Part shown: positions 8,967 to 45,587 of the stretch, in pieces
Layout: each line of letters opens with the position of its first letter
How positions within the stretch are numbered: the stretch's first letter is position 1
Source: Desulfococcaceae bacterium HSG8
GTDB taxonomy: Bacteria > Desulfobacterota > Desulfobacteria > Desulfobacterales > 4be13
NCBI GenBank assembly: GCA_030378015.1
Contig: JAUCGG010000017.1
Coordinates: forward strand, 1 to 46,636
Direction: 5' to 3'
Length of the DNA: 46,636 bases
The notes under the pieces: model-generated
Databases searched by the model: none
Seen by the model: only the letters and a program-made list of their open reading frames with translations
What the model was told of the DNA's origin: nothing
Position numbers and translations under genes: made by a program

Positions 8967-8974
8967 GAATATTT

Positions 8975-19637: not shown

Positions 19638-22600
19638 ATGACAAGAACAGCCAAAACCGTAACCATTTTAACCATTATGATTCTGTGTCTGTGCGGAATA
19701 CCCCTTCGGCAAGCTCAGGACAAGGCTTTCGCAGGTACACTGCCGGACACCGGGCAGACCAAATGCTACAACAACACCTCGGAAATCGCCTGCCCCGCAT
19801 CCGGCGAGGATTTCTACGGGCAGGATGCTCAGTACAGCACCAATCCCCGCTCATACACCAAGCTTCAGGGCGGCATAGTGGTACAGGATAACGTGACCGG
19901 GCTGATCTGGGAGGTGAAGACCGATGACGGATCTGTGCATGACAAGGACAACACCTACAATTGGGACGATGCACAGAGTGTGTTCATCGCCGCATTGAAC
20001 TCGGAGAAGTTCGGTGGGTATTCAGATTGGCGGTTACCCACGATTAAGGAATTGGGTTCCATTGTAAATTTGGAGCGGTATAACCCTACTATAGATACTA
20101 ATTATTTTCCTCATACGATATCCTCCCCTGATCCTAACACCCTAACTTCTGCTCAATATTGGTCATCGACTGATCGCCTCGGTACTTCTGATTCAGCATG
20201 GTCGATTACGTTTATTGATGGCAGTCGGGGGAATGTTGGTTCTAAGAAATATAAAGAAAATTATGTACGTGCTGTGCGAGGAACTAATAATTCGTCATTT
20301 AATTTTGTTGATAACGGCGATGGAACGGTTACTGATATCGGAACTGGCTTGATGTGGCAACAAGAGGCTTCTGGTTTAGTAGTAAGTTGGAAAGATGCTT
20401 TGGCTTACTGTGAGAACCTTTCTTATGCTGGGTACAATGACTGGCGATTGCCAAACAGAGGAGAACTCCTTTCTATAATGAACTACGGGAAATATGATTT
20501 AGCTATTGACGACAATTATTTTCCTAATATGATAGCACATTGGTATTGTTCTTCTACCAGTAATGTTAGTCAAACTGAAGACTATTGGAACGTCCACTCC
20601 AGTAATGGTGGAGATAGCTGTTATTACCCTAAAGCAGGAATCGGCTGTGTCCCGATTGCTGTCCGAGGCGGAGTAACGCCGCAGACTCATACACTGACCA
20701 CCAATATCGCCCCCGCAGTTGGCGGCAACACAATTTCCCGTTCTTCCGACAAATCCGCTTATGACCACAACGAAAGCGTAACCCTAACCGCAACCCCTGA
20801 CGACTGCTACAATTTCACCAACTGGTCAGGCGATTGCTCCGGGACATCTCCCACCTGCACCCTCACGATGGATTCGGACAAATCGGCCACGGCAAACTTC
20901 GCCATAAAAACATATTCGCTCACCGTCACTGCAAGCAACGGCAGCGTCACCAAAAGCCCCTCCGCATCAACCTACGACTGCGGAACCACTGTATCCCTTA
21001 CTGCCAACCCGAACACAGGTTACCACTTTGTCCGCTGGGAAGGCGATGTCTCCGGCACAAGCACATCCGCGTCCCTCACTATGACCGCAAACCGCAGTGT
21101 CACCGCCATATTCGAGGAAAATATCCCGGACACTTACACGCTTACAAAAACCGTTTCTCCCGCATCCGGAGGCTCGGTTTCCGCATCCCCCGACAAATCC
21201 GCCTATACTTCAGGCGAATCCGTAACCCTCACCGCCACCCCCGAAGCCTGTTATGACTTCACCGGATGGTCCGGCGCGTGTTCCGGAACGTCTTCCGCCT
21301 GTACCCTCACGATGGATTCGGACAAATCAGTCACGGCAAATTTTGCCATTAAAACCTGTTCCCTCAGTATCACCGCAGAAAACGGCACCGTGAGCAAAAG
21401 CCCGGATCAGGTATCTTATGACTGCGGAACAACAGTGCTGCTCACCGCATCCCCGAATTCAGGCTACAACTTCGATCATTGGGAAGGAGATGCCACAGGA
21501 ACGCAGACCACCGCCAGCCTCACCATGACAGAAGATATGAGCATCACAGCGGTGTTCGTATCAGGCAGTTATACAATTTCCGGGTATGTCAGGGATTCGG
21601 AGAATCAGGGCATCAGCGGTGTTACGCTGAATTTCAGCAATGACGGCGGCTCTGCAATCACGGACAGTTCGGGATTTTATACCCGACCCGTGAACAGCAA
21701 CTGGAGCGGCACGGTTACGCCGGACAAAACCTGCCATACCTTTGCGCCCTCGGACACGCCCTACAGCAATATCACTTCAAGCCAGTCCGATCAGAATTAT
21801 ACAGCAGCAACAGAAACTTACACCATTTCGGGATACATCAGGGATTCCTCGGCAAACAGCGGTGTCAGCGGCGTTACCCTGGATTTCAGCAACAGCGGCG
21901 GTTCAAGCAGCACGGACAGTTCCGGATTCTATTCGCATTCAGTGGATTGCGGCTGGAACGGCACGGTTACACCGAGTGCCAGTGCTTATACGTTTTCTCC
22001 CTCCAATCTTTCCTACGGCAGTGTCACGTCGGATATGTCCGGGCAGGATTATACGGCAGCACAGCAGGCCGTACCCAAAATCAGCTCGGACCCGGAATCC
22101 CTGACATTTTTTCAGTCCCGGTTCAGGAAAAAACGGACGGACATATTTGCAAAGCCGGAAGACAGTGCCAGACAAAAGACAAAACCGGAGAATCTGTTCA
22201 GCACCTTTTCCCGGAAAAATCTGCGCCTGTCCGAGAGGCAAAGCGATCTGCTTTTCAATTATGAGGCACTGGACACCACAGAAGATTCGGGAATCGTCAG
22301 GGTGAATGCAGACCTCCTGGAAACCGCGGACGTGCTGAATCTGAATCTGTCCGAAGATGCGGCTTACCCGGTTTTCAGAACCAGGACTGATGAACGATAT
22401 GACGGAAATTTCACATGGTACGGAAAAACTGAGGACAAAGCTTTCGGAAATGCGATTTTTGTGGTACAGAACAAGGAAGTGACCGGAACGATCCGAACAG
22501 GAGGAGAACTTTACGCGCTGAGACCTTTGGGACAGGGCCTTCACGCGCTCATCCGCCAGAACCCGGACAGCTTTCCCCCGGAACATCCGCCCGAATATGC

Positions 22601-24307: not shown

Positions 24308-27259
24308 CTATCCGCTCTGCAAAACCTCCCTCAGAATAGAGATCAGATCCTCAAATCCGATCTTTCCGTCGCCGCTGATATCTGGACTCAGCTCCGTGTT
24401 ATCGGTGTTCATGCCAGTCAGCATCCGCAGAATCCGTATGGCATCGCCCAGGTCAGCATTATCGTAAACTGTATTTGTCCTGATTTTCACTTCCGATTCT
24501 GTTGTCGTATCAGGATCAGAGAGAGAAGCGGCGGTAATCATGACAGTATTCTCTGCTCCCGGTTCGGAAGGCACTGTGATCTCCAAAGAAAGATTTTCCC
24601 GTGTGAGAGATCCGACTTCGACGGAAGACGGCAGACCGTTCATCTCCCAGTCTTCAGCATCGCTCACTTCCAACGTGTAAGTATCGTCAGCCGGACTGTT
24701 ATTGACAATAAAAAGTTCGGCAGTGACAGTCTCCCCGCCTTCCGCGCTTACATGCAGAGGTGCGATCAGGATAACATCATAAAGAATCTTTGCAGGGCCG
24801 GTTACAACATTAGGTGCATCAACTATTTCGGAAAGGTTTTCATTATCATCCAGCAGGATTGTGTCCGCGAAAATTTTGACCTGATTTCCTGCCTGAAGCG
24901 CATTCCCCGATGTTCCCCGGAGATCAATCACACCTCCGGTTCCGACTGCGAGGGTGATCATATCTGTTGCGGAAATGGCTTGGCTGCTGAGATTCGTGAG
25001 ATCAAGGGTCAGGTTATCCCCCCCGAAGATAGTGATATCTTCGGCATCGTAAATCCGTGCGCTGTCGCCTGTCACCGCTATGCTCGGATCTATCATGACC
25101 CGACTGCCGCTGCCGCCAAGGCCGACTTCCCCGTTCTGACTGACAGATTTGGCGACAAGATGCACATTCCCACCGCTTCCCGGTGTTGCCCCGTCTGCTG
25201 ATTCCCGCAAAATCTTTTCAGCATCCCCTCCTCTCCCGCTGTAAATTCTGCCGGTATTTGTGTTTAGCAAGGCATTTGCGGCATGGAGTACGGTATCACC
25301 TCCGTTGCCTCCGGTCGCATTGCCGTAACTCCCATGATGGGTTCCCATTCCGCCGTTACCTTTTTCACTATCACTGGCGGGACCTATAACCCCTTCGTTA
25401 GTAATGTCTTCCCCGGATATGAAGATTACGCCTCCGTGACCTCCTTCGGCATAATCGTTGTCGTGTCTTATTATTTCATCTCCCCCGCGGCCAGCCTGGA
25501 TATTGCCGGTCTCCCCGTTATATATCTCAGGGGCTTCCAGTATTACGCTGCTTCCCGGTCTGGCGCGGATATAGTCTGACAGGCTGGTTCCTCTTCCGTT
25601 TGCCCCGTCTGCCCCGACAATATATCCCTCGTTACGGATGAGGGTATCTGCTGTCAGCCTTAAATCTTTTCCCGCCGGGGTTTCCAACGTGCCATAATTG
25701 TAAAACCCGCTGACCCTGATCGGAGTGGCGCAGATAAGCGTATGCCCGGGATTAATCTGTGCCACATCCCCGGGGCCGGGAATATCACCTGTCCCTGTAA
25801 CTCTTGACCAGGTATTCGGATCATTCCATGACCCGCCGGAGCGGGATGCAATTATCGGATCTGTGGTTTCCGGGAGAATTGTCGTAGTCGTTGTTGTTGT
25901 TGTTGTCGTAGTAGTCGTTGTCGTTGTTGACGCAGGAAGAGTTGTAGTAGTTTCAGGCAGGGGGATTGTCGTTGTTGTGGTCGTCAGTGTTGTAGAAATA
26001 ACTGTGGTGGTTGTCGTGCTTGTGGTTGCGCTGGTAGTAGTCGTTGAAGCCGCGGGTTTTGTCGTCGTTGTGGTCGTATTTGCCGAACCGGTTGTCGTTG
26101 TTATCGAACCAGTTGTCGTTGTTACCGGAACAGTTGTCGTTGTTGACGGAACAGTTGTCGTTGTCGTCGGGATAGTTGTCGTTGTTGACGGAACAGTTGT
26201 TGTCGTTACCGTGAGAATATCGAAATTGTACCGGATGGTCAGGCCTGCCGAAACATTGCTGCTGCTCCAACAGTAATCTGCGTACCCGATTACTTCCCCC
26301 TCATAAGATACCACGTTTCTTCTTCCGTCGCCGGTTGTCTCAATGATGAAAGCTACAGAACTGCCAGGTATCCATCCTGGCCTTTTAACAATCTGACCAA
26401 GCAGTCCTCTGATATCTATCTGAGGTATTGCATTCAGACCGGGGGATACACATACAGTGACAGGGCCGTATGCACCGAAAAGTCTGCCGGATATATTATT
26501 CTGGCCTGATGTGAATTCCGAAGCATTATCAACAGCCTGTGCATATATGTTGAGCGTGATTTCACCTTCCTTGACCCCGGGCCATTCAGGCGCGACATGC
26601 GTGGCCCCGGGATTCGGGGATGAATCAGGGCATACATAACCCGACTCCGGGGGGTTTTTAAAAGTTAATTTCGCTACCTGGACCGTGCAGTCCTTGGGAG
26701 CAGTGACGTCATTGAAACGAAAGCCCGCGGTTGTAGCCGCCTCCAGCATGATGGCTCTGTTCTCATCAGGGTACGGCTCCTCTTCTGTCCCCTTTACATT
26801 GCCTGACGCATCTTCTTCAGCATCATCCGGAGCGGCTTTGTAGGACTCTGTGACGATAAATTTTACATCAATTGTACAGTCTTTCGTAACAGTCAGGGTA
26901 TATTCCGCATCTTTGCTGCTCTGTCCGTCGTCAAATACCAAGTCATAATATACGGATACCGGTTCAGGATCACCTTCGCAGGTCAGGATTACGTCGTAAA
27001 TCTTGTAAATCTGGTTAGCCGTCTGGGGAGCGCGAACCAGCCTGAATGTCAGGTCGGTTCCTGCGGTTATGCCTGAAACCCCGACGGGTGACAGGATATC
27101 CGGCGGATCAATCAGCTTCGCCCCTTCATACTCGACACTTCCGCCGAAATCATCTGTAACATTGACCGTTACCGTGAATTGTGCCTGGGCACCGGCGACG
27201 TTAAATATACCTCCGAATAGCAGGAAAACAAATATTATTACTGTGCTTTTTCTTAACAT
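24308..27259 (-). CDS. Secreted Thr-rich surface protein (983 aa). Order: signal peptide, ~330-aa N-terminal domain, ~130-aa poly-Thr/Pro linker, Gly-rich beta-helix-like region, C-terminal dockerin-like module.
   Basis: MLRKSTVIIFVFLLFGGIFNVAGAQA signal. TTTTVPSTTTTIPTTTTT...TTTTTTTTTTTTTTTTT linker (DNA 25850-26250). GG/GNGG-rich repeats. C-terminus DISGDGKIGFEDLISILREV (dockerin-type Ca loop). Confidence 0.75.
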   Translation of the reverse strand: MLRKSTVIIFVFLLFGGIFNVAGAQAQFTVTVNVTDDFGGSVEYEGAKLIDPPDILSPVGVSGITAGTDLTFRLVRAPQTANQIYKIYDVILTCEGDPEPVSVYYDLVFDDGQSSKDAEYTLTVTKDCTIDVKFIVTESYKAAPDDAEEDASGNVKGTEEEPYPDENRAIMLEAATTAGFRFNDVTAPKDCTVQVAKLTFKNPPESGYVCPDSSPNPGATHVAPEWPGVKEGEITLNIYAQAVDNASEFTSGQNNISGRLFGAYGPVTVCVSPGLNAIPQIDIRGLLGQIVKRPGWIPGSSVAFIIETTGDGRRNVVSYEGEVIGYADYCWSSSNVSAGLTIRYNFDILTVTTTTVPSTTTTIPTTTTTVPSTTTTVPVTTTTGSITTTTGSANTTTTTTKPAASTTTTSATTSTTTTTVISTTLTTTTTTIPLPETTTTLPASTTTTTTTTTTTTTTTTILPETTDPIIASRSGGSWNDPNTWSRVTGTGDIPGPGDVAQINPGHTLICATPIRVSGFYNYGTLETPAGKDLRLTADTLIRNEGYIVGADGANGRGTSLSDYIRARPGSSVILEAPEIYNGETGNIQAGRGGDEIIRHDNDYAEGGHGGVIFISGEDITNEGVIGPASDSEKGNGGMGTHHGSYGNATGGNGGDTVLHAANALLNTNTGRIYSGRGGDAEKILRESADGATPGSGGNVHLVAKSVSQNGEVGLGGSGSRVMIDPSIAVTGDSARIYDAEDITIFGGDNLTLDLTNLSSQAISATDMITLAVGTGGVIDLRGTSGNALQAGNQVKIFADTILLDDNENLSEIVDAPNVVTGPAKILYDVILIAPLHVSAEGGETVTAELFIVNNSPADDTYTLEVSDAEDWEMNGLPSSVEVGSLTRENLSLEITVPSEPGAENTVMITAASLSDPDTTTESEVKIRTNTVYDNADLGDAIRILRMLTGMNTDNTELSPDISGDGKIGFEDLISILREVLQSG

Positions 27260-27287
27260 TTTATTGACCTCCTTTTTAAATTGTTTA

Positions 27288-29056: not shown

Positions 29057-29641
29057 TCAGCAGCGTTTCTTAAACTTTCTCCTGATTCCCGCAAGAGCGG
29101 CCAATCCGGAACCCAGCAGCCACAGTGATCCGGGAATGGGAATGACACTGATGTTCCCGCTTTCCGGATTTGCGGAAAGAGAATCTCCTGAGAAGTCGCC
29201 GAGAATCGGATCTTCGGGAAATGACAGCGGGCTGTTTCCCATGCCGATGCCTGTAAAGGAAAGCGTCGCCAGGGCAAAGGAGTCAGACTGGAAGCTTAAA
29301 TCATCAAGCAGGGAAAGCTCCCTGAGGTGTATTGTACCGCCGAGATTGCCGTCGCCCCAGTTCAGCGCATCATAATCCGAGATATCGCCCAGTCCGGTTC
29401 CCAGGGTGTAATCGTTAAAATCCAGGACGCTATTGTCGTAGTTCACATTGAAATCAAATGTGCCCAGGTCATCATTTTCCAAACCTGAGACAACAATATC
29501 CACGTCAGTCATCCCGCCGATCCCAATCACCGAGTCGGACGGATCGAAGGAGAGGTTTGCCGCCCATGCCTGATCACTGACAAACATGGCAATAAACATC
29601 GCAAATAAACATGTTAGAAATTTTTTCCCCAGTTTTTTCAT
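29057..29641 (-). CDS. Small secreted protein (194 aa): signal peptide, cohesin-like beta-sandwich domain, PEP-CTERM-type C-terminal sorting signal (PIP variant).
   Basis: MKKLGKKFLTCLFAMFIAMFVSDQAWA signal. GGMTDVDIVVSGLENDDLGTFDFNVNYDNSVLDFNDYTLG follows the type-I cohesin pattern (G.TV.VPV.LS.V...I...DF.L.YD.NVLE.....G). C-terminus VIPIPGSLWLLGSGLAALAGIRRKFKKRC is a Pro motif + hydrophobic helix + Arg/Lys tail. Confidence 0.6.
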   Translation of the reverse strand: MKKLGKKFLTCLFAMFIAMFVSDQAWAANLSFDPSDSVIGIGGMTDVDIVVSGLENDDLGTFDFNVNYDNSVLDFNDYTLGTGLGDISDYDALNWGDGNLGGTIHLRELSLLDDLSFQSDSFALATLSFTGIGMGNSPLSFPEDPILGDFSGDSLSANPESGNISVIPIPGSLWLLGSGLAALAGIRRKFKKRC

Positions 29642-29719
29642 GATAATACCCTCCTTTCTTTAAAATGTTTGAGTGTAAAGGAACTCCGAATAAGATACCC
29701 GGTTCGGGGAGACGACCCC

Positions 29720-30085
29720 TCCTGCTCGGTTCGGATTGACAAATCCGAACCCCGGCGGGGGATTTGCCAATCCCCCGCGAGCAACAACGGGCAATCCTCC
29801 GCGAGCAGCGCCCATCTTGCTCGGTTCGGATTGACAAATCCGAACCCCGGCGGGGGATTTGCCAATCCCCCGCGAGCAACAACGGGCAATCCTCCGCGAG
29901 CAGCGCCCATCTTGCTCGGCTCGGATTGACAAATCCGAACCCCCGGCGGAGATTTGCCAATCCCCCGCGAGCAACAACGGGCAATCCTCCGCGAGCAGCG
30001 CCCATCTTGCTCGGTTCGGATTGACAAATCCGAACCCCGCGGCGGGGGATTTGTCAATCCCCCGCGAGCAGCAGCGGGCAAAATA
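29720..30085. repeat. Tandem array of 4 copies (period 95 bp) of family G: ctgctcggttcggattgacaaatccgaaccccggcgggggatttgccaatcccccgcgagcaacaacgggcaatcctccgcgagcagcgcccatcttg.
   Basis: Period measured between successive ctcggttcggattgac. Each unit has two hairpins and ttgaca/ttgcca motifs. A solo copy lies at 13033-13103. Confidence 0.75.
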
Positions 30086-30415
30086 AAGCCTTTTCCTGCA
30101 ACGGAAAATCCCCCCGGCCCCCTTTACGAAAGGGGGAGGAATTCTACTATTATCAATTCGTAAATTAAATTCTCCCCCCTTTTTTAAAGGGGGGCCGGGG
30201 GGGATTTCCGCCGTAACAGCCTTTTCCTGCAACGAAAAATCCCCCCGGCCCCCTTTACAAAAAGGGGAGGAATTCTACTATTATCAATTCGTAAATTAAA
30301 TTCTCCCTCCTTTTTTAAAGGGGGCCGAGGGAGATTTCTGCCGTAACAGCCTTTTCCTGCAACGAAAAATCCCCCCGGCCCCCTTTACGAAAGGGGGAGG
30401 AATTCTACTAATTCC
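30085..30415. repeat. Tandem array of about 2.7 copies (period ~125 bp) of a family C variant (cttttcctgcaacgRaaaatccccccggccccctttacRaaaggggg aggaattctactattatcaattcgtaaattaaattctccc..ttttttaaaggggggccgRggg.gatttc.gccgtaacag). The last unit is truncated exactly at the stop codon of the 5059-aa gene.
   Basis: Units start at 30090, 30222 and 30343. The stop TAG of the giant gene (complement of cta 30408-30410) lies within the ctacta of the repeat. Confidence 0.7.
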
Positions 30416-36400: not shown

Positions 36401-39400
36401 CGCAGGTGACTGTCTCGCCCGGATCAAGGCCGATGGCGCCCGGGTCGCTGCCGTCGCTACAGGCGACGCCGGTCAGGTTCCAACCGGCCGGGAGGTTGAT
36501 CTCGTTCACCGAGTAGGTGCCGGGAGTGAGAAGAGGGCCGGAGTTGTTCGTCCCGTCATCAGCCAGGGAAAAGTTGGGACCATAGTCAGTGCTGAACTCA
36601 AAGCTCTCGGTCGAGCCGTCAGGGTCGGTCTGCTTTTCGACGATGATGATGCCTGGCTCCGGTTCTTCAATCTCCACCATGTAGTCCTCGACCTCGCCGT
36701 CTTCGGCCGGACCGCCGCACGGAGTCAGTGGCCCAAGGGTATTAATTCGGAAGCGGGCGAATGTTTGCCCGGGCACTATATCCGGGGGCACGCTGACCAC
36801 TGGCGCATTCACACCGGTCGTATAGACTCCGGGAGAATAGTTTCCGGAAACAACATGCTCCCGGCCGCCCATATCACCCCAGACGCCACTGCCGTTAAAG
36901 TCAATCCAGCCGTCAACATAAGCCGGACCATTATTAACCTCAAATGTAATGGCAGCTTGTTGCCCTTGATACAATACAGGTATTGACACCCCGTCTTCAT
37001 CATCAGGATCAGTACCGGCGTTATCATCACCCATTGCGGCTGGGTCTGGCTGGCCGTCAGCTTCCGCATCGGGATCATCTGAAGGATCACCGATACCCAG
37101 AAAGGGAGCGCCGGGGACGATGATATGGCTTGCCCCATTACTGGCAGCCAGAGTGCAGTATGGCGTATCCGGCGCATCGCTATAGTCCAGGCCATGCGGG
37201 CTCGGATCGCAGGCATCGCCCAGGCTGTCGCCGTCCGTGTCTGTCTGACCCATATTGGGAACGTCCGGGCAGTTGTCCTGACCATCGGGTACGCCGTCCT
37301 CATCGGTGTCTGTAAAACAGTCCATTTCATATATGTACGCAGAGCCGGAACCGAGAGCTTTCTCATCATCGCTGGTCCCTACGAGGACATAATTGCCGGA
37401 CATGAAGACAGAATAGCCAAAGTAATCATAGTTATTACCCTGTCCGTCATAGGCGGTGAACTTTGCCTGCTGTACCCAGGAGGTTCCGTCATAATGAAAA
37501 ACATAAGCAGCGCCAAAATCGGCTCCGTTATCACCATCCCCGATGGCCCCGACGACGGCATAATCGCCGGAAACGGAAACAGATTGGCCAAATCTGTCAT
37601 CCTGCGCCCCGTCGTCAGCAGTGAGCTTTGCCTGCTGTGTCCAGGAGGTTCCGTCATAATGAAAAATGTATGCGGACCCGGAATCGCTCCCCCTGTCATC
37701 ATCATAGATAGCCCCGACGACGGCATGATCACCGGACACGGAGACAGATCTGCCAAAGCGATCACCCTGCGCCCCGTCGGCGGCCGTGAGCTTTGCCTGC
37801 TGCACCCAGGAGGTTCCGTCATAATGAAAAACATAAGCAGAGCCGGAATCGCTCCCCTTGTCATCATCATAGCGGGCCCCCACGAGGGCATAATCACCGG
37901 ACACGAAGACAGATATGCCAAAGTGATCACCCTGCGCCCCGTCGTCTGCGGTGAGCTTTGCCTGTTGCATCCAGGAGGTTCCGTCATAATGAAAAATGTA
38001 TGCAGACCCGGAGTCAACCCCTTTGTCATCATCATAAAAAGCCCCCACGAGGGCATAATCGTCGGACACGGAGACAGGGACGCCAAAATGATCACCCTGC
38101 GCCCCGTCGTGGGCGGTGAGTTTTGCCTGCTGTGTCCAGAAGGTTCCGTCATAATGAAAGACATAAGCAGAATCCTGGTAAGCCCCCACGACGGCATAAT
38201 CGCCGGACACGGAGACTGACTGTCCAAAGCTGTCACCCTGGGTCCTGTCGTTTGCGGTGAGCTTTGCCTCCTGTGTCCAGGAGGTTCCGTCATAATGAAA
38301 AATGTATGCGGCACCGGTATAGTCATCGGGGGAACCGGAATCGCTCCCGTTGTAATCATCCCCGGGAGACCCAACGACGGCATAACCGCCGGATACGGAG
38401 ACAGAATGGCCAAAATTATCATAGGCCGCCCCGTCGTCTGCGGTGATCTTGAATTCGGTCGCATCGGCAAAACTGCAGTTGTCCGGGTCAAGCGGGAAGG
38501 CGTCATGCTCATCGTTCACGCCGTCATTGTCGTCGTCCGGGTCGGCATTGTCGCCGATGCCGTCCTCATCATTGTCAGACTGTTCGGTCGCATCAAGCGG
38601 GAATGCGTCATCCGCATCGTTCACGCCGTCATTGTCGTCGTCCTCATCGCAGACATCACCTAGATTGTCACCGTCCGTGTCTTCCTGATCCGCATTGGAG
38701 ATGTCCGGGCAATTGTCCTGAGCATCAGGTACGCCGTCCTCATCGCTGTCTGCAAAGCAGCCAATTCCGTATATATACGCGGAGCCGGAACCGCCATCGT
38801 CCCCGTAAGCCCCCGCGATGGCATAATTGCCGGACATGGACACAGCGTAGCCAAAATAATCATCCGCCGCCCCATCGGGAGCAGTGAGTTTGCCCTGCTC
38901 TGTCCAGGATTCCCCGTTATAATGAAAAACGTACGCAGAGCCGGAATCGCTTTCACTGTCATCATTCCAGCGAGTCCCGACGAAGGCAGAACCGCCGGAC
39001 ACGGACACAGCGTGGCCAAAGCGATCACCCGGCGCCCCGTCGGAAGCGGTGAGTTTGGCCTGCTCGATCCAGGATTCTCCGTCATAATGAAAAACATAGG
39101 CCGAGCCTGAGGAACTGCCCCTGTCATCATCTCTGTAAGCTCCTACGATGACAGAATCGTCGGACACGGATACAGATACCCCGAAAGAATCGTACGCCGC
39201 CCCGTCAGAAGCGGTGAGTTTGGCCTGTTTGGTCCAGGCTTCCCCGTCATAATGAAAAACGTAGGCTGAACCTGAACCGCTGCCCCTGTCATCATCTCTG
39301 TCAGCCCCGACGACGGCAAAATCGTCGGACATGAACACAGAGATGCCGAAGGAATCATCCGCCGCCCCGTCGGAAGCGGTGAGTTTGGCCTGCTCTGTCC

Positions 39401-42400
39401 AGGATTCCCCGTCATAATGAAAAACGTAGGCCGAGCCTGAAGTGCTGCCCCTGTCATCATCTCCCACAGCCCCGACGAAGGCAAAATCGCCGGACACGGA
39501 CACAGAGATGCCGAAATAATCATCCGCCGCCCCGTCGGAAGCGTTGAGTTTGGCCTGCTCTGTCCAGGATTCCCCGTCATAATGGAAAACGTAGGCCGAG
39601 CCTGAAGAACTGCCCTTGTCATCATCTGCGTAAGCCCCGACGATGGCAGAACCGCCGGACATGGACACAGCGTAGCCGAACCGATCACCCGCTGCCCCGT
39701 CGGAAGCGTTGAGTTTGGCCTGCTCGGTCCAGGATTCCCCGTCATAATGGAAAACGTAGGCCGAACCTGAATTGCTGCCCCTGTCATCATCTCCCTCAGC
39801 CCCCACGATGGCAAAATCGCCGGACACGGAGACAGAATTGCCAAAATTATCATAGGCAGCCCCGTCGTCTGCGGTGAGCTTGGATTCGATTGCATGGGCA
39901 AAATCGCAGTTGTCCGGGTCGAGCGGGAATGCGTCATCCGCATCATTCACGCCGTCATTGTCGTCGTCCTCATCGCAGGCATCGCCCATGTTGTCGTTGT
40001 CCGTGTCTGTCTGATCCGCATTGGGTATGTCCGGGCAGTTGTCCGTGTCGCCGCATACGCCGTCACCGTCCGCATCATTGCAGGGCACAATGCAGTCGTT
40101 GTAAATCCCCATAACCTCTGATTCGGAGAGTTCACGGTTCCAAAATCCCACATCGTCAATAAGGCCTTCATAATAACTGTTGTAATCCCAGTTATGAACT
40201 CTGCCGATTCCTGTTTCAGGCCCGGTGGCCCAGCCGACAAAACTGCCGGTTTCGACATACTGGTCAGCAAGCACTCCGTCCTGATAAAGTCTGAGGGTTC
40301 TGTCAGCATATCCCTGATATCCCGCGATATGATGCCATTCATTATCGGCCACGTTATTTCCGGTCAGGGTGACAAAGCCTCCGACATTGGTTTTGTAATC
40401 CTGATAATAAATCTCGCCGTTGCTGTTGATTCCGAATACCCAGGTATGATAGCGTCCGCCAGTCGGTCCCATAACCAACTGGTTCACCTTTGAAGTCCTG
40501 ATCCAGAAGGAGAAGAAATTTTTATGCCCGGCTTCAAAGTCTGTCCGGATGTAGCTGTTCCCGTCAAAGCTGTATGCGCTGTCAGTATCTCCGCATCTGC
40601 CGGATGTCAGTGAGGCTCCGCCGACCGCCGTGCCGTGATGACCGTTGCCGGATTCGTCGTCCGCGTCGCCGTCAAAGGGATAGTATGCTACGAGACCGTC
40701 ATCCGGGCAGTTGTCACACACATCTCCGACACCATCACCGTCCGTGTCAGACTGATCGGAATTGGCCAGATCGGGACAGTTATCTCCGTTGTCGCCGATG
40801 CCGTCCTGATCGTTGTCAGCCTGCTCGGCCGCATCAAGGGGGAATGCGTCATCCGCATCGTTCACGCCGTCATTGTCGTCGTCCAGATCGCCGTTGTCGC
40901 CGATGCCGTCCTGGTCGTTGTCAGACTGCTCGGCCGCATCAAGGGGGAATGCGTCATCCGCATCGTTCACGCCGTCATTGTCGTCGTCCTCATCGCAGGC
41001 GTCGCCCAGGTTGTCGCCGTCTGTGTCTTCCTGACCTGCATTGGAAACATCCGGGCAGTTATCCTGACGGTCAAAAATACCATCATCATCCGTGTCCGCA
41101 CAGACCGTTTCGTAAGCCCCTATATCAAACCCGTCACATCGGGGTCTGGGATTTCCCTCGATATCTTCATCGGGCGATCCTGCTGATGTGCCTGTGTCAA
41201 TACAGGGAGAGAGGGAAGTCAGATGATAATTGCCATTTGCCGCATCCAGGAACAGCGGATCAGCGTTGATGTTGCCTTCACCAGCATATCCGCCCTGTAT
41301 GTCGGAATAGCTCACAACAGGGGAACTGCTCTCGGATACGATCTGATTCTGCATATTTCCCCAAATGATACAGTTGGTAACGATTGCGGAGGATTTGAAC
41401 CAGTAAATTCCGCCGGTGCCGTAGTTGGCCGAATTCCCGCTGACAGTGCTGTTGGTTATGGTCGGAGAAGAATTATACCAATAAATCCCGCCGCCGTCAT
41501 AGCCTGCCGAATTTCCGCTGATAATGCAATTGATAAGTTTCGGGGAGGAGTAACCGAAAGAAAGCATTCCGCCGCCGCTGTGGCCTACCGAATTCCCGCT
41601 AATGATGGAACTGGTAATGGTCGGAGAAGAGCGATAGTCACAATAAATTCCACCTCCCCCACCACCTATATCATGTTCACTAATGGTGCAATTCGTAATG
41701 ATCGGCGAGGAGTTGGTGCAATAAATCCCACCGCCAGTGCAGAATTCGTCCGAATTCTCGCTAATGGTGCAGTTGGTGATGATCGGAGAGGCGTAAGCAC
41801 AATAAATTCCTCCGCCACGGCCCCAAACCTCATCGTCGCCGCCGTTTACCGAATTCCTGCCAATAGTGCAGTTGATAATGCTCGGAGAGGAGTAACTACA
41901 GTAAATCCCTCCGCCATGATCTGCCGAACCATTGGTAATCGTAAAACCGGACACTACAGAATCACCGCCTTCTCCGCTATGAAAATTAAATCCCCGCCCA
42001 TTATTCTCACAATCTATAATGCAGTTTCCAGGGCCGTTTTCTGATCTGAGGGTAATGGCTTTTCCCTTGAAATCCAAATCTTTGTTTCCCGTCCCTGTGT
42101 AAGTGCCGTCGGCAACCAGGACAGTGTCACCATCTGAGGCTGCGTCAATAGCGGCCTGAATTGTGGGGTATTCACCGGGAAAACGGAGCGAATATCTGAA
42201 TTCATAAGCTCCCATGTCAGCCATGTTATTCTGAGGTCTCGGAAGACCGTCAAGGTCTTGACCCGGCGCTCCTGCTGATGTGCCTGCATCAATACAGGGT
42301 GAGACGGATGTGAGATGATAATCGCCGTTGGCAGCATCCACAAACATCGGGTCGGTATTGATGTTGCCTTCACCTGTGTATCCGCCCTGTATATTGGAGT

Positions 42401-45400
42401 ATGTGACAACAGGATTGCTTTGGTCTCTGAAAATTTCGCTTGGTGCGTCATTCCAGAAAACAGAGTTGGCAATGCTCGGATTAGACGCGATATAACAGGA
42501 AATTCCACTGCCATACGTTGCTGAATTATTGGTGACAGTGCAGTTGGTAATAGATGGAGAAGAGTGATTGCAATGAATCCCGCCGCCATGCGATGATGCC
42601 TGATTGCCATAAATGAGACAGTTGGTAACGGACGGAGCAGAGTAATAGCACCAGATTCCGCCACCGTAGGTTGTCCTGTTGTCATAAATAACGCTGTTGC
42701 TAATGACCGGAGAGGATGCGTTGCAATGAATCCCGCCTCCATGAGATGATGCTGAATTACCAGAAACGAGGCAACCGGTAATGGTCGGAGAAGATTGGTA
42801 GCACCAAATCCCGCCACCGTAAGTCGCCTGATTATTACGGACAACACAGCCGCTAACAGTCGGAGAGGAATACTTGTAGAGATAAACTCCACCGCCTTTT
42901 ATTGTTGCTGAATTACCGCTGACAGTGCTATTGGTGATAATCGGGTAGCAGTACCAGTTGCAGTAAATTCCGCCCCCGAATTCAGTTGCCTCATTATCGC
43001 TAATAGTACAGTCGCTAATAATCGGAGAGGATTGATTAAGATGAATTCCTCCGCCGTAAGTCGCTGAACTTTCTCTGATGACACAGTTGCTAATGGTCGG
43101 GGAAGAATTGTTGAAAAAAATCCCGCCGCCGTGCTTGCTTACTGAACCATTGATAATGCTGAATCCGGAAAGCACCGAGTCTTCACCTTCCCCGCTATGA
43201 AAATGAAATCCCCGCCCGTCATTCTCACAGTCTATAATGCAGTTTTCAGGCCCGTTTTCCGATCTGACGGTGATGGCTTTTCCATTGAAGTCCAGATTCT
43301 TATTTCCTTCACCTGTGTAAGTACCATCGCTGACCAGAACCGTGTCACCGTCTGAGGCTGCGTCAATAGCGGCCTGGATGGTGGAATAATCGCCGGGAAC
43401 AGCCAAGGTCTCAGAACAGCCGTTTTCGTCAGGCTCGGTCTTACTCGGATCACCGGGGCAACCGTCAACGCAGTCCGGGGTTCCGTCATTGTCCGTGTCC
43501 GTATCCTGGTCGTAGGGGCAGGAGAGTTTGGTTATGTAGGCATCTCCCCAGTTACCACCGTAAGTACCCTGGAACGGATTCGCGAGGGGAAAATCTCCGA
43601 GAGACTGACCCACAACATAAGCACTGCCTTCGCTATCCACAGCAATGCCGAAGCTGACATCAGTGGCTGATCCGCCCAGATAGGTGCTGTAAATCAGCCC
43701 GTCTCCCACTGCGTTCATCTTGGTCACGAAGGTATCTCCGGGGCCGCCGCCGTAGGTGTTATCAAATGCATTTTTTACTGGAAAATCTGAGGAATGCGTG
43801 TTGCTGGTGACATAAGCATGACCGCCACTGTCCACGGCGATATCCATGGCATGATCCATTTCCAGGGAGCTTCCGCCCAGGTAAGTGCTGTAAATCAGAC
43901 GATCACCGGCCGGATTCAGTTTGCTTACGAAAGCATCATTGGAACCGCCGTAAGTGTCCTGGAATGCATTTTTCAATGGAAAATCAGGAGACCGGGTCGC
44001 TCCGATAATATAGGCGTTACCGGTGTCATCCGCGGCAATATCATAACCGTCATCCCGATTGTTCCCGCCCAGGTATGTGCTGTAAATCAGCTCATTGCCG
44101 GCCGCATTCAGTTTTGTTATGAAGGCATCATAATCACCGCCGTAAGTGCTTTGGAATGCATTCACGAGTGGAAAATCAGCCGAGGACTGAGTTGTCCCGG
44201 CAATGTATGCGTTGCCCTCGGTATCCACAACTATGCCCCTCCCCTCATCATACTTGTCTCCACCCAGGTAGGTGCTGTAAACGAGTTCCTTTCCTGCCGC
44301 ATTCAGTTTGGTCACAAAAGCATCTTGCTTACCTCCGCCGTAAGTATCCTGAAACGGGTTTACCAACGGGAAATCACCGGAGCGAGTGTATCCGCTAATG
44401 TGTGCGTTGCCGTCATTATCCACAGCAATGCCGCTGGCAGATTCCCAGTCGGCATCTCCCCCCAGATATGTGCTGTAAATCAGTTCATCTCCGTCCGCGT
44501 TCAGTTTGACCACAAAGGCATCATGAGTGCCTCCGAGTCCGATATCCAATGAACCCGGGGTCACAGGGAAGTCCGGAGATTTGGTGTATCCTGCGATATA
44601 TGCGCTGCCCTCACTGTCCACAGTGATGCTCAGACCACGATCTTTGTTCCCCCCGGCCAGATATGTGCTGTAAATCAGCCTGTCTCCGGCCGCATTCAAC
44701 TTGCTCACAAAGGCATCTTCAGACCCGCCGCCGAAACTGTTCTGACTGGGAAAGTCGGAGGATTGGGTCATGCCGGTGATGTATGCATTGCCATCGCTGT
44801 CCACGGCAATGTCAAAACCCCAGTCTGTGGCACTCCCGCCCAGATAGGTGCTGTAAACCAGCGTGACCGGATCAATCACCAGCGGGTAAGCCGGATCATA
44901 ATCATCAACCTCAAAGCCGATCTCCCCGTTATCGGCAAGCGCGAAGCAGGCTCTGACCGGAACATCCTGGCCTCCGATGACCTGCCACGCAACCGGGGCC
45001 TGTTCCCGCAGGATACGGCCGGCCGCTTCGATCAGCAGATCGCCGGTGTCGGGATCAATGCTGACATCCTCAGCCCCGTCATAGCACCAGCGAATCAGGG
45101 AGGGATCTCCGCCCGGAGCGACGGTGAATGTGCTTTTGAGATAGCCTTCCTGCCCGTCATAGCGCAGGTCAGTATCCGGCCAGAGATCAGTGTAAAGGAT
45201 ACTGTGATGGATGGGAACACCGGTATGCCATCGGGCCGGGTCATCGCCGGTGAAATAATTGAAAGTTCCCGGCAGGGTTTCACCCGCGGTGATCTGTGCA
45301 TCCGGATCATTGCCGTCAAAGTGAATCCGAAGCACTCCCGGGGGATCGGAGCCTGTTCCGGGCAGTGAAATAATCACCTCCCCGGGAGTGAAAAACATTG

Positions 45401-45587
45401 TTCCCCCGAAGCTTCTGACCAGGAACCGGGCCTCTTCATCCGTCTGCCCCGCATTGGGTACAAAAGAGAGGGGCAGTCTGCCGTAATCATCAATGATGAG
45501 GGAACCGGCATACGCGGCAGTTCCGAAACCCAGCATCAGTGCCATAAACAGTGCTGCAAATCTGAAAGTCCGTTCTGAAATTTTCAT
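30408..45587 (-). CDS. Giant secreted mosaic cell-surface protein (5059 aa). Order: signal peptide; SBBP beta-propeller repeats; two parallel beta-helix blocks; TSP3-type Ca-binding repeats; LamG/ConA-like domain; two blocks of FG-GAP-like repeats; GEVED domains (x2); SdrD-B/DUF11-like beta-sandwich repeats (x5-6); NHL repeats (x6-7); a third beta-helix; 9 tandem 30-aa Cys-rich repeats; about 12 TSP3 repeats; C-terminal dockerin-like module.
   Basis: Signal MKISERTFRFAALFMALMLGFGTAAYAGS. SBBP DAFVSKLNAAGDRLIYSTYLGG (DNA ~43550-44900). Beta-helix GGGIYC...NCTISEN (41230-43500). TSP3 DTDGDGVGDVCDNCP. FG-GAP-like SGSAYVFHYDGESWTEQAKLTASDGAADDxFGxSVSVSGDxAVVGA (37380-39900). GEVED DGEVEDYMVEIE / DGEVEDYLVEIE. 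NHL GVAFDSAGNLFIADxxNHRIRKVD (35290-36300). Cys repeat CSQDCNGDWGGTATVDNCGECVGGNTGEVA (31490-32300). Dockerin-like GDLNDDCVIDLDDVDIIGIHL...DIDGDGTITVLDARKLVLL. ATG at 45587. Confidence 0.85.
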   Translation of the reverse strand: MKISERTFRFAALFMALMLGFGTAAYAGSLIIDDYGRLPLSFVPNAGQTDEEARFLVRSFGGTMFFTPGEVIISLPGTGSDPPGVLRIHFDGNDPDAQITAGETLPGTFNYFTGDDPARWHTGVPIHHSILYTDLWPDTDLRYDGQEGYLKSTFTVAPGGDPSLIRWCYDGAEDVSIDPDTGDLLIEAAGRILREQAPVAWQVIGGQDVPVRACFALADNGEIGFEVDDYDPAYPLVIDPVTLVYSTYLGGSATDWGFDIAVDSDGNAYITGMTQSSDFPSQNSFGGGSEDAFVSKLNAAGDRLIYSTYLAGGNKDRGLSITVDSEGSAYIAGYTKSPDFPVTPGSLDIGLGGTHDAFVVKLNADGDELIYSTYLGGDADWESASGIAVDNDGNAHISGYTRSGDFPLVNPFQDTYGGGKQDAFVTKLNAAGKELVYSTYLGGDKYDEGRGIVVDTEGNAYIAGTTQSSADFPLVNAFQSTYGGDYDAFITKLNAAGNELIYSTYLGGNNRDDGYDIAADDTGNAYIIGATRSPDFPLKNAFQDTYGGSNDAFVSKLNPAGDRLIYSTYLGGSSLEMDHAMDIAVDSGGHAYVTSNTHSSDFPVKNAFDNTYGGGPGDTFVTKMNAVGDGLIYSTYLGGSATDVSFGIAVDSEGSAYVVGQSLGDFPLANPFQGTYGGNWGDAYITKLSCPYDQDTDTDNDGTPDCVDGCPGDPSKTEPDENGCSETLAVPGDYSTIQAAIDAASDGDTVLVSDGTYTGEGNKNLDFNGKAITVRSENGPENCIIDCENDGRGFHFHSGEGEDSVLSGFSIINGSVSKHGGGIFFNNSSPTISNCVIRESSATYGGGIHLNQSSPIISDCTISDNEATEFGGGIYCNWYCYPIITNSTVSGNSATIKGGGVYLYKYSSPTVSGCVVRNNQATYGGGIWCYQSSPTITGCLVSGNSASSHGGGIHCNASSPVISNSVIYDNRTTYGGGIWCYYSAPSVTNCLIYGNQASSHGGGIHCNHSSPSITNCTVTNNSATYGSGISCYIASNPSIANSVFWNDAPSEIFRDQSNPVVTYSNIQGGYTGEGNINTDPMFVDAANGDYHLTSVSPCIDAGTSAGAPGQDLDGLPRPQNNMADMGAYEFRYSLRFPGEYPTIQAAIDAASDGDTVLVADGTYTGTGNKDLDFKGKAITLRSENGPGNCIIDCENNGRGFNFHSGEGGDSVVSGFTITNGSADHGGGIYCSYSSPSIINCTIGRNSVNGGDDEVWGRGGGIYCAYASPIITNCTISENSDEFCTGGGIYCTNSSPIITNCTISEHDIGGGGGGIYCDYRSSPTITSSIISGNSVGHSGGGMLSFGYSSPKLINCIISGNSAGYDGGGIYWYNSSPTITNSTVSGNSANYGTGGIYWFKSSAIVTNCIIWGNMQNQIVSESSSPVVSYSDIQGGYAGEGNINADPLFLDAANGNYHLTSLSPCIDTGTSAGSPDEDIEGNPRPRCDGFDIGAYETVCADTDDDGIFDRQDNCPDVSNAGQEDTDGDNLGDACDEDDDNDGVNDADDAFPLDAAEQSDNDQDGIGDNGDLDDDNDGVNDADDAFPLDAAEQADNDQDGIGDNGDNCPDLANSDQSDTDGDGVGDVCDNCPDDGLVAYYPFDGDADDESGNGHHGTAVGGASLTSGRCGDTDSAYSFDGNSYIRTDFEAGHKNFFSFWIRTSKVNQLVMGPTGGRYHTWVFGINSNGEIYYQDYKTNVGGFVTLTGNNVADNEWHHIAGYQGYADRTLRLYQDGVLADQYVETGSFVGWATGPETGIGRVHNWDYNSYYEGLIDDVGFWNRELSESEVMGIYNDCIVPCNDADGDGVCGDTDNCPDIPNADQTDTDNDNMGDACDEDDDNDGVNDADDAFPLDPDNCDFAHAIESKLTADDGAAYDNFGNSVSVSGDFAIVGAEGDDDRGSNSGSAYVFHYDGESWTEQAKLNASDGAAGDRFGYAVSMSGGSAIVGAYADDDKGSSSGSAYVFHYDGESWTEQAKLNASDGAADDYFGISVSVSGDFAFVGAVGDDDRGSTSGSAYVFHYDGESWTEQAKLTASDGAADDSFGISVFMSDDFAVVGADRDDDRGSGSGSAYVFHYDGEAWTKQAKLTASDGAAYDSFGVSVSVSDDSVIVGAYRDDDRGSSSGSAYVFHYDGESWIEQAKLTASDGAPGDRFGHAVSVSGGSAFVGTRWNDDSESDSGSAYVFHYNGESWTEQGKLTAPDGAADDYFGYAVSMSGNYAIAGAYGDDGGSGSAYIYGIGCFADSDEDGVPDAQDNCPDISNADQEDTDGDNLGDVCDEDDDNDGVNDADDAFPLDATEQSDNDEDGIGDNADPDDDNDGVNDEHDAFPLDPDNCSFADATEFKITADDGAAYDNFGHSVSVSGGYAVVGSPGDDYNGSDSGSPDDYTGAAYIFHYDGTSWTQEAKLTANDRTQGDSFGQSVSVSGDYAVVGAYQDSAYVFHYDGTFWTQQAKLTAHDGAQGDHFGVPVSVSDDYALVGAFYDDDKGVDSGSAYIFHYDGTSWMQQAKLTADDGAQGDHFGISVFVSGDYALVGARYDDDKGSDSGSAYVFHYDGTSWVQQAKLTAADGAQGDRFGRSVSVSGDHAVVGAIYDDDRGSDSGSAYIFHYDGTSWTQQAKLTADDGAQDDRFGQSVSVSGDYAVVGAIGDGDNGADFGAAYVFHYDGTSWVQQAKFTAYDGQGNNYDYFGYSVFMSGNYVLVGTSDDEKALGSGSAYIYEMDCFTDTDEDGVPDGQDNCPDVPNMGQTDTDGDSLGDACDPSPHGLDYSDAPDTPYCTLAASNGASHIIVPGAPFLGIGDPSDDPDAEADGQPDPAAMGDDNAGTDPDDEDGVSIPVLYQGQQAAITFEVNNGPAYVDGWIDFNGSGVWGDMGGREHVVSGNYSPGVYTTGVNAPVVSVPPDIVPGQTFARFRINTLGPLTPCGGPAEDGEVEDYMVEIEEPEPGIIIVEKQTDPDGSTESFEFSTDYGPNFSLADDGTNNSGPLLTPGTYSVNEINLPAGWNLTGVACSDGSDPGAIGLDPGETVTCVFTNSQERGTLTIIKQATPQDGADFDFTSNIPVSVLGGNISTVAGDGTGGFGGDGGPATNASLNYPGGVAFDSAGNLFIADQWNHRIRKVDAITGNISTAAGNGTSGFGGDGGPATNASLNGPYGVAFDSAGNLFIADLSNHRIRKLDATTGNISTVAGDGTRGFGGDGGPATSASLYYPIGVAFDSAGNLFIADWYNHRIRKVDATTGNISTVAGNGTGGSGGDGGPATSANLNEPIGVTFDSAGNLFIADYKNNRIRKVDATTGNISTGGSGGDGGPATSASLYYPTGVVFDNAGNLFIADQWNHRIRKVDATTGNISTVAGNDTGGVGGDGGPATSANLHNPTGVVFDNAGNLLISDRSNHRIRKVEALPVMASFTLDDANPDDGDGVSSSVTFNGLPAGTYEIIESLPGGWQLDNATCTGAGGSLTGETLSVAVGAGEDVVCTFSNTHPGTIIIEKQTDPDGSDQSFDFSPSYGSGFSLSDNGTNSSGPLTPGTYSVIESVPVGWSLTGATCSDGSDPGAIGLDAGETVRCVFTNTQKRGTIIVEKQTDPDGSAESFEFGTDYGPNFSLVDDGTNNSGPLTPGTYSVDEINLPAGWNLASATCDDGSDPSVIGLGAGETVTCIFTNIQQRGTIIVEKQTDPDGAPDSFTFSGDADGSITDDASLVSSNLLPGTYTSQEIVPAGWNLTSIRCYDPTGDSSGDVNTKTATFKVEAGETVRCVFTNTQKRGTIIVEKQTDPDGAPDSFTFGDDASGTISDGGQIVVSDLLPGSYTSQETVPAGWELTSIVCDDGNSTVSLADFRANFQVEAGETVKCTFHNRLPLDYGDAPDSYGTLLAGNGARHAIVRGHSLGPIVDAEPDGQPSPLADGDDLNPPGMPDDEDGVTLPPVLTAGTSSTVIVDGGPSGGMLDAWIDFNGNGVFDHQAEHLWGGVSQLLNGQPNPVNNLTFVVPSDAVIGPTYARFRLSMSGGLQPTGFVPDGEVEDYLVEIERLQCTDDCYADDNGDDSNGGTSWTDAKKTIQAAVDQVNSGGTVHVAAGTYTEQVTLTPGKNLAILGEGQDDVTWIAPAEGKCLVGNMDGYTGNMNYEISGFTFNGRSDPGAEWGAGVMIYKARSGPLSLSIHDNRFVEDRASGDAGHWATSMFLCHNRFAPRDGSGNAPVHIYNNTDETLGGMTMSNSQGYDIYNNVFDGCSDAIYNGHGCPDAAGQTFGDHRIYDNVFRNATNGFQPDPDDEPAIDWKYYGAGGGTHLPSIIEGNLFEDNDTAIKFSMDTDMTYPEHLVRENRFISNELAVTVDGDYASPINARYNYWEAADGPSEAGCGSGDAISENVAYCPFYEDEPMTTLADADGDGLCGSNDNCPDDSNPDQTDTDGDGWGDVCDCDDEDEDVNPDATEICNGTDDNCDGIADEGLPACSQDCNEDWGGTAYTDECGECVGGNTGNTSTCTQDCNGDWGGTAAVDNCGECVGGNTGEVACSQDCNGDWGGTATVDNCGECVGGNTGEVACSQDCNGDWGGTATVDNCGECVGGNTGEVACSQDCNDDWGGTATVDNCGECVGGNTGEVACSQDCNDDWGGTATVDNCGECVGGNTGKIACSQDCNNDWGGTATVDNCRECVGGNTGKVACSQDCNGDWGGTVADADQDSVCDDVDNCLGTRNINQMDTDNDGLGDACDNCVSDPDPDQTDTDGDALGDVCDNCPDIENPDQENADGDELGDACDNCPDIENPDQEDADGDEVGDTCDNCPDDANPDQEDGDGDEVGDTCDNCASTSNSDQTDADSDGIGDICDACVDMDNDNVCDEDDNCPGTFNPDQTDTDSDGLGDACDDCLDADQDTVCDGVDNCVGTPNPGQADADKDGVGNACDNCSGDANYNQEDRDSDDVGDACDNCASASNPDQTDTDSDGQGNACDGCPDDPYKIETGDCGCGVPDDRAGDLNDDCVIDLDDVDIIGIHLNEDAGICMECDIDGDGTITVLDARKLVLLCDCPECTCDGN
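31490..32300 (-). repeat. Intragenic tandem repeat, period 90 bp, 9 copies, near-identical at the DNA level (encodes the Cys-rich 30-aa module).
   Basis: ccgccccagtcgccattgcagtcctgagaacaggcaacttccccggtgtttccgccgacacattctccgcagttatcaacggtggcagtt repeated with only a few substitutions per unit. Confidence 0.8.

Follow-up and report, generated by a model that had tools for sequence, protein, structure and literature searches.

A candidate two-gene cohesin–dockerin cassette with a PEP-CTERM-type anchor signal on a Desulfococcaceae contig

The 46,636-nt contig of Desulfococcaceae bacterium HSG8 examined here (the window, by which we mean this whole stretch of DNA) carries four genes for secreted proteins, among them one for a giant protein of 5059 amino acids (aa) that ends in a dockerin and, on the same strand, one for a 194-aa protein that joins a cohesin to a sorting signal of the PEP-CTERM type. 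We distinguish two kinds of dockerin-like tail: a Cys-rich kind found next to relatives of this cohesin gene (the partner type), and a second kind (type B) found on the two other large proteins. Each kind was searched for with a profile hidden Markov model (HMM) of its own. The open reading frames (ORFs) and the other features of the locus are as follows, the 194-aa protein being characterized by Pfam/NCBIfam matches, an AlphaFold2 (AF2) model and Foldseek.

19638..24089, forward strand: ORF for a 1483-aa secreted protein with two Lcl_C/DUF1566 domains, InlB-B repeats, a reprolysin-like M12 metalloprotease domain, BACON and a C-terminal type-B dockerin-like tail
24308..27259, reverse strand: ORF for a 983-aa secreted protein, free of Pfam domains, with a long Thr-rich linker and a degenerate type-B dockerin-like tail
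29057..29641, reverse strand: ORF for the 194-aa cohesin/VPLPA-CTERM anchor protein
29716..30410, no strand assigned: two tandem-repeat arrays (95 nt x 3.8 and 131 nt x 2.5) that occupy the intergenic gap between the giant and cohesin genes
30408..45587, reverse strand: ORF for the 5059-aa giant secreted protein, the putative cargo, with a C-terminal partner-type dockerin
30420..30617, reverse strand: partner-type Cys-rich dockerin module, residues ~4991-5056 of the giant (61.2 bits with the partner HMM)
45654..45699, reverse strand: expression platform, a terminator hairpin followed by a U7 tract (-24.2 kcal/mol, z = -6.2 against shuffled sequences), its 5' arm overlapping the 3' end of the aptamer
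45681..45755, reverse strand: c-di-GMP-I-type (cyclic di-GMP class I) riboswitch aptamer, GGC variant RF03167 (72.7 bits, full-length, gathering score 59), ~94 nt upstream of the ATG of the giant gene

The giant (MDM8522467.1) begins with a signal peptide followed by DUF7948, an SBBP propeller, two parallel beta-helix/choice-of-anchor-Q regions and TSP3 repeats, and further contains LamG, two FG-GAP blocks, GEVED, SpaA-like and NHL domains ahead of its C-terminal dockerin. All four proteins have a Sec-type signal peptide at the N-terminus, as judged from the sequence by eye. NCBI names the 5059-aa protein 'SBBP repeat-containing protein', the 1483-aa protein 'DUF1566 domain-containing' and the 194-aa protein 'VPLPA-CTERM sorting domain-containing protein'; the public-record names of the locus proteins make no mention of a cohesin or a dockerin. 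An earlier note on this DNA had read the locus as three consecutive large secreted proteins of 1483, 983 and 5059 aa, and while these sizes and their coordinates are exact, the three genes are not strictly consecutive, since their row is interrupted by 2.5 kb of repeats as well as by the cohesin gene.

The same note had credited the 194-aa protein with a cohesin-like domain and a PEP-CTERM-type anchor, and this description is correct. The protein consists of a signal peptide (residues 1-27), a cohesin-fold domain (residues ~28-166, encoded by 29144-29560) and a VPLPA/PEP-CTERM sorting tail (residues 167-194, IPIPGSLWLLGSGLAALAGIRRKFKKRC). The Pfam Cohesin model (PF00963) matched it with 22.9–23.7 bits, at a cut-off of 24.1, and covered residues 46-84 alone; searches with its relatives showed it to belong to a tight family of ~20 homologues, each with a signal peptide, a ~135-aa domain and a PEP-CTERM tail, 13 of 17 of which matched Pfam Cohesin (best E-value 2.7e-9). 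Each family member has a single cohesin within ~190-230 aa. In a sequence search of the PDB with the family profile, cohesins lead with E-values of ~2e-3 (Ruminococcus flavefaciens ScaC, Clostridium perfringens NagJ and Acetivibrio cellulolyticus ScaB), and the AF2 model, with a predicted local distance difference test score (pLDDT) of 88.1, gave cohesins, whose fold is a nine-stranded beta-sandwich, as all 50 of its top 50 Foldseek matches in the PDB (best E-value 2.5e-11; target TM-scores of 0.74-0.83 for the best). We took as a sorting signal a C-terminal motif with a transmembrane (TM) helix and a basic cluster scoring above the cut-off of TIGR02595 or TIGR03370, together with an N-terminal signal peptide. 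The tail of the 194-aa protein has this composition, scoring 27.0 bits with the NCBIfam model for VPLPA-CTERM, a PEP-CTERM variant (cut-off 25.35); with the Pfam PEP-CTERM model it is sub-threshold (15.6 vs 20.7 bits). Among the homologues, 12 of 17 matched Pfam PEP-CTERM, and 7 of the 10 from fetched loci passed the TIGR02595 cut-off. The cohesin protein of the gammaproteobacterium Agaribacter marinus (L007 9869-10576) ends in a hydrophobic tail that is not of the PEP kind, PPQVNSPTLWSATILLILCLLMVRRVQ, and matched no NCBIfam sorting model.

The tail of the giant is built of the two tandem segments that characterize dockerins, each a 12-residue EF-hand-like Ca loop and a helix. By inspection of the sequence, the loops, DLNDDCVIDLDD and DIDGDGTITVLD, carry D at position 12 and D or N at positions 1, 3 and 5, and after each loop the sequence continues into a hydrophobic stretch of helix-like character; after the second segment comes DARKLVLLCDCPECTC. 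The partner HMM was built from 28 cohesin-adjacent tails, the window sequences being excluded, and its consensus reads GDLNxDGxVDRxD...RNxPA...DxDGDGxITxxDARxL/C...C..P.C. It matched the tail of the giant over its full length with 61.2 bits; the tails of the 1483-aa and 983-aa proteins each scored ~2 bits. The Pfam Dockerin_1 model (PF00404) scored the giant's tail at 15.7–16 bits, below its cut-off of 22.9, and matched at E <= 1 all ten cohesin-adjacent tails that were compared with it, the window's among them (best E-value 7.2e-10); 5 of 10 full-length neighbouring cargos reached the Dockerin_1 gathering score. When a profile of ten tails, that of the window included, was compared with the PDB, dockerins came first (2y3n_B, 9e-10), ahead of calmodulins. 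Within Desulfobacterota the partner-type dockerin (in the window at 30420-30640, reverse strand) has nine Cys in ~73 residues, including a conserved CxxC that directly precedes the second Ca loop and a CxCPxCxC at the extreme C-terminus, a set that might serve as a metal site or a disulfide clasp, and the soil subgroup has a simpler C...C...C pattern. One upstream dockerin-ended protein (L010 3-380) has a hydrophobic, Arg-rich C-terminal anchor of its own beyond the dockerin.

Relatives of the cohesin gene were sought in a genome collection with a nine-sequence alignment, and the homologous loci come from Desulfonema magnum, a member of the Desulfohalobiaceae, a member of the Geobacteraceae, A. 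marinus and 27 soil or sediment metagenome contigs, with three more found later. In 31 of 36 cohesin-bearing loci a neighbour of the cohesin gene on the same strand ends in a partner-type dockerin. This dockerin gene usually lies upstream; of the five loci that have no adjacent dockerin, four are at contig ends, and L016 alone may be a true negative. The entry from the dockerin side was narrower: a search with a 73-aa tail gave four short fragments, missing the D. magnum protein, and its profile version gave proteins of <=127 aa. From these hits four loci were chosen by their dockerin alone, a cohesin/PEP-CTERM gene then being sought nearby, and such a gene was present in three of them (L036, L039 and L040) and absent from one Nitrospirota locus. 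The proteins that carry the dockerin differ widely: a trypsin-like protease with beta-helix and TSP3 in D. magnum, a multicopper oxidase in Geobacteraceae, a PKD/REJ protein in Agaribacter, and elsewhere a PGAP1-like (lipase-like) hydrolase with CARDB and TIG, as well as FG-GAP, LamG, Lectin_C and peptidase C1 proteins. At one locus (L003), Wzz and tyrosine-kinase genes of exopolysaccharide (EPS) synthesis lie near the cassette.

This pattern bears on a reading in which the two proteins do not bind each other directly, the small one being a carbohydrate- or matrix-binding PEP-CTERM protein, the dockerin-like tail a Ca-dependent stabilizing or folding module, and the neighbours co-regulated matrix components. 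The UniRef name of the D. magnum homologue of the 194-aa protein, 'Carbohydrate-binding domain-containing protein', would suit such a reading, as would the finding that on the tail profiles EF-hand proteins come close to the scores of dockerins, and the function of these modules outside cellulosomes is called unknown in the literature (PMC5244752). However, that a specific dockerin subtype accompanies a specific cohesin subtype across differing cargos and phyla is hard to explain without an interaction, and the fold matches are to cohesins that bind dockerins, some of them solved in complex; we regard the absence of direct binding as decidedly improbable.

A second alternative accepts the binding and places it earlier: as an export adaptor, the cohesin/PEP-CTERM protein would bind the dockerin in the periplasm and carry the cargo through an exosortase-linked route, after which the complex may dissociate or be cleaved. 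It shares the adjacency and fold evidence with the anchoring model, and the one-to-one operonic pairing with short or overlapping gaps (many loci have 3-40 nt, and in L040 the genes overlap by 4 nt) resembles that of chaperones and ushers; moreover, the cargos have no outer-membrane targeting signal of their own. Yet no known cohesin–dockerin pair behaves in this way, the fate of a PEP-CTERM protein after processing is itself unknown, and the sequences do not separate export from stable anchoring, so that we consider an export adaptor unlikely. Taking the fold of the cohesin, the homology of the tail to dockerins, the match to a sorting signal and the conserved adjacency with variable cargo together with the riboswitch described below, we think it probable that the genes for the 5059-aa and 194-aa proteins form a two-gene anchor and cargo cassette, found in many other diderm bacteria, in which the dockerin would hold the adhesin via the cohesin.

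Some loci pair one cohesin gene with two or three dockerin genes, so that an arrangement of one anchor and several cargos does occur: in L039 one cohesin gene is followed by three partner-type dockerin ORFs, in L036 two dockerin genes precede one cohesin gene, and in L019 and L029 the cohesin gene is flanked by a dockerin gene on both sides. In these multi-cargo loci every cargo tail is of the partner type. Such clusters also include ORFs of 71-89 aa that encode barely more than a partner-type dockerin (L036 4001-4270 and L039 4001-4216); one short dockerin ORF of this sort, P0186, is present on 12 contigs, and these ORFs may be free competitors, regulators or gene fragments.

The tails of the two other large proteins of the window were compared with a type-B HMM from which the window sequences were likewise excluded, its consensus being GDIxxDGxVDLxDAILALKVxAG...DVNGDxKIGxEExIYILQ.

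23892-24086, forward strand: type-B dockerin-like tail of the 1483-aa protein (79.7 bits with the type-B HMM), both Ca loops intact
24323-24460, reverse strand: degenerate type-B tail of the 983-aa protein (25.6 bits with the type-B HMM), the second Ca loop alone intact and the first lost

The type-B HMM found no match in the giant's tail at E <= 0.01, which together with the partner-HMM scores rules out that the three tails are the same module. Dockerin_1 scored the 1483-aa tail at 16.1 bits, again under its cut-off, and did not match the 983-aa tail, in which EF-hand models alone found a match. Across the family, 20 of 22 type-B tails matched Dockerin_1 at E <= 1 (best E-value 2.8e-8), EF-hand proteins scoring equally on the type-B profile, and a profile–profile alignment of type B with the partner type by hhalign gave a probability of 94.5%. 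A full HMMER scan returned 488 representative proteins with a type-B module, often at the C-terminus and sometimes in 6-10 tandem copies. Outside the window, type B occurred once in 38 other loci (354 kb of window and loci together), and there the cohesin gene was not its neighbour; in the window and these 38 loci we found no evidence that pairs the type-B module with the 194-aa cohesin.

All three tails are thus dockerin-like in a broad sense, and the giant's is the only one of the kind that travels with the 194-aa cohesin. The proposal in the earlier note that all three proteins end in a duplicated Ca-binding dockerin stands at this broad level; it fails in that the tails are not of one kind but belong to two subfamilies, and in that the first of the two Ca loops is missing from the 983-aa tail. 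With the Pfam models that the note had named for checking it (PF00404 and PF00963), the window's cohesin and tails score below the cut-offs, while family-level support is good for both dockerin classes. The wider idea that a cohesin anchor docks dockerin-tailed secreted cargo without a scaffoldin is strongly supported for the pair of the 5059-aa and 194-aa proteins by the adjacency in 31 of 36 loci and the reverse test (3 of 4), and is unsupported for the 1483-aa and 983-aa proteins, with their ~2 bits on the partner HMM against 61.2 for the giant.

The form of that idea in which the one PEP-CTERM cohesin docks all three large proteins as interchangeable cargos can draw on the dockerin-like character of all three tails at superfamily level (type B against the partner type at 94.5%, and most type-B tails matching Dockerin_1), on the existence of multi-dockerin loci (L036, L039, L019 and L029), and on the position of the 983-aa gene downstream of the cohesin gene on the same strand. 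We nevertheless judge it quite unlikely: where several cargos share a locus all of them have partner-type tails, the two type-B tails barely register on the partner HMM, the single type-B occurrence among the other loci lies apart from the cohesin gene, and type B is a large independent family, often in tandem, which suggests that it has partners of its own. For these two proteins the likeliest partner is a different one, whose gene lies elsewhere. One member of the type-B set (P0026-P0175), the 924-aa protein P0029, has an N-terminal cohesin-like segment (hhalign 90.8%) and two type-B modules at its end, which hints at a separate cohesin/type-B network.

The aptamer upstream of the giant gene exceeds the gathering score of its covariance model and occupies a 5' untranslated position, which places it in the c-di-GMP-I clan (CL00126). 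As the 5' arm of the terminator hairpin overlaps the 3' end of the aptamer, the element is probably a ligand-ON transcriptional switch. In three further loci, L001 (4293-4371), L002 (9780-9855) and L006 (7079-7158), which include D. magnum and a Geobacteraceae metagenome-assembled genome, a riboswitch of this class immediately precedes the cassette; the GGC variant is found in the window and L002 and the canonical RF01051 in L001 and L006, making four Desulfobacterota loci in all. A search of 20 further loci with Rfam found no more riboswitches, most contigs there ending short of the 5' region of the cargo gene. Related aptamers in Geobacteraceae (cf. L006) sense cyclic GMP-AMP (cGAMP) instead, and the literature that names c-di-GMP-I-GGC does not state its ligand. 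A riboswitch of this class fits an adhesion or matrix function under second-messenger control.

We propose the following course of events for the pair. The presence of the ligand would turn on transcription of the giant gene through the riboswitch and its terminator, and the riboswitch probably also governs the cohesin gene, which follows on that strand after a gap of 766 nt; the only terminator-like site on this strand of the gap is weak, and co-transcription of the two genes is plausible. Both proteins would be exported by Sec across the inner membrane, and the VPLPA/PEP-CTERM signal of the 194-aa protein would be expected to be processed by an exosortase-type system, which would tether it to the exopolysaccharide matrix or the cell envelope. 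The giant, a putative multi-domain adhesin, appears to have no anchor of its own and to bring instead a C-terminal Ca-binding dockerin of the subtype that accompanies the cohesin. By plugging into the cohesin, presumably in a Ca-dependent manner, this dockerin would acquire the sorting signal in trans, and the adhesin would be retained on the surface or in the matrix. Going beyond this pair, we speculate, with a confidence that falls a little short of even, that the cassettes represent an undescribed and widespread two-component display system of Gram-negative bacteria, in which a PEP-CTERM signal is supplied in trans by a one-domain cohesin adaptor able to capture any secreted protein with the dedicated Cys-rich dockerin at its end, be it an adhesin, a protease, a lipase-like enzyme, a multicopper oxidase or a lectin, and which in Desulfobacterota is turned on by a cyclic-dinucleotide riboswitch.

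Several points weigh against the anchoring model. The giant–cohesin gap of 766 nt is far longer than the ~0-130 nt of other loci with the dockerin gene upstream, and it is filled by the 95-nt and 131-nt arrays, which are of high identity and begin right where the giant gene ends, at its stop codon; transcription of the two genes could thereby be uncoupled. The window's cohesin falls just under, and its dockerin under, the Pfam gathering scores, and an AF2 prediction of the giant's dockerin alone (from a four-sequence alignment with three homologues) had a pLDDT of 37.8 and was unusable. Conserved adjacency speaks for a functional link rather than for direct binding, as adjacent genes share ancestry. 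No exosortase was found on the 46.6-kb contig, and a hydropathy screen of the multi-TM ORFs in the fetched flanks gave no candidate beside the cassette; the model would also need a route by which a 5059-aa protein crosses the outer membrane.

Among characterized systems the nearest functional analogue is that of OlpA and OlpC of Clostridium thermocellum (PDB 3ul4 and 4dh2), where, as proposed here, a single cohesin on a surface anchor binds a C-terminal dockerin with a duplicated Ca loop; the AF2 model of the 194-aa cohesin superposes on their structures and the tail profile matches their dockerins. A cellulosome-like system is ruled out, as there is no scaffoldin and no glycoside hydrolase (GH) or carbohydrate-binding module (CBM) domain in the window proteins or in ten neighbouring cargos. 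Unlike cellulosomes, the cassettes are found in Gram-negative hosts, use a PEP-CTERM/VPLPA-CTERM anchor in place of SLH (S-layer homology) modules or sortase, have no multi-cohesin scaffoldin, CBM or GH, and carry adhesins, proteases, oxidases and lectins as cargos; their dockerins have dissimilar repeats and a Cys-rich extension, and the pair is usually one to one and adjacent. The NagJ/NagH toxin complex of C. perfringens (PDB 2jh2 and 2ozn) and the cohesin of Archaeoglobus fulgidus (PDB 2xdh) likewise use such modules to join secreted proteins outside cellulose degradation, and NagJ cohesins are among the best sequence matches, and 2xdh among the fold matches, of the 194-aa protein. These pairs, however, are not exosortase-anchored, do not form a conserved two-gene cassette and are not under riboswitch control.

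With PEP-CTERM/exosortase sorting (Haft et al. 2006, 2012) as represented by PepA, a flocculation protein of Zoogloea, the 194-aa protein shares an N-terminal signal peptide and, at the C-terminus, a VPEP/VPLPA motif with a TM helix and a basic cluster, as well as an association with exopolysaccharide and biofilm, and its family weakly matches floc_PepA and other small PEP-CTERM families. To our knowledge, PEP-CTERM proteins described so far have the sorting signal in cis, as part of the functional protein itself; in the cassette, by contrast, it is on a small adaptor whose sole other domain is the cohesin. As for c-di-GMP-I (GEMM-I) riboswitches that precede adhesin, pilus or matrix genes, the window has the same order of aptamer, terminator platform and gene for a large surface protein, differing in that its aptamer is the GGC variant (RF03167). 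No NCBIfam family covers the combination of cohesin and PEP-CTERM. In the literature searched we found no paper that joins PEP-CTERM with a cohesin or dockerin, although single examples may be present in the survey of Peer et al. (2009), and for dockerin together with exosortase we found a review of anaerobic methanotrophic (ANME) archaea alone.

Sorting by PEP-CTERM and exosortase is predicted in thousands of genomes, and the fate of its substrates has barely been characterized. Cohesin and dockerin modules are common beyond the cellulolytic clostridia, and their function there is described as unknown (PMC5244752, PMC9012536). If the reading as a widespread display system is true, non-cellulosomal pairs would gain a defined role in diderm bacteria, and the cassette would be a tractable reporter for the action of exosortase on its substrates. 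Because the cassette is compact and conserved, with cohesin, dockerin subtype and sorting signal constant and the cargo changing, both the role of the pair and the fate of the sorted protein could be tested directly with two small recombinant domains. Its carriers include the cultured D. magnum and, with a variant, A. marinus. For Gram-negative hosts the cassette would, in addition, offer an orthogonal display tag that is ready to use, and the riboswitch would link it to the control of adhesion by cyclic dinucleotides.

Other features of the window lie outside the pair. The ~1.8-kb non-coding stretch that separates the cohesin gene from the 983-aa gene (27260-29056) is dense in dispersed repeats of a 123-nt and a 120-nt family, and two of the window's three matches to the Rfam small RNA family Acido-Lenti-1 (RF01687) fall in it (51.7 and 40.9 bits), the third being at 5231-5276 (42.4 bits); this has the appearance of a small mobile element or of a structured element present in several copies. 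Three successive DUF2887 genes (16302-19364, forward strand), which lie a short way upstream of the 1483-aa gene, encode proteins of 263, 279 and 191 aa, the last truncated; DUF2887 is a putative transposase family of the Rpn/PD-(D/E)XK type. Further upstream, an 829-aa protein (13192-15681, forward strand), named 'SPFH domain-containing protein' by NCBI, is a bacterial protein like the major vault protein (MVP), with matches to the major-vault-protein shoulder and Vault_3 repeats and with an SPFH/Band 7 domain. At the start of the contig a single 614-aa ORF (418-2262, reverse strand) fuses a LytB (IspH) domain with a UbiA prenyltransferase domain, and it is followed by three large genes for hybrid histidine kinase/response regulators with PAS and GAF domains (2749-11620, reverse strand).

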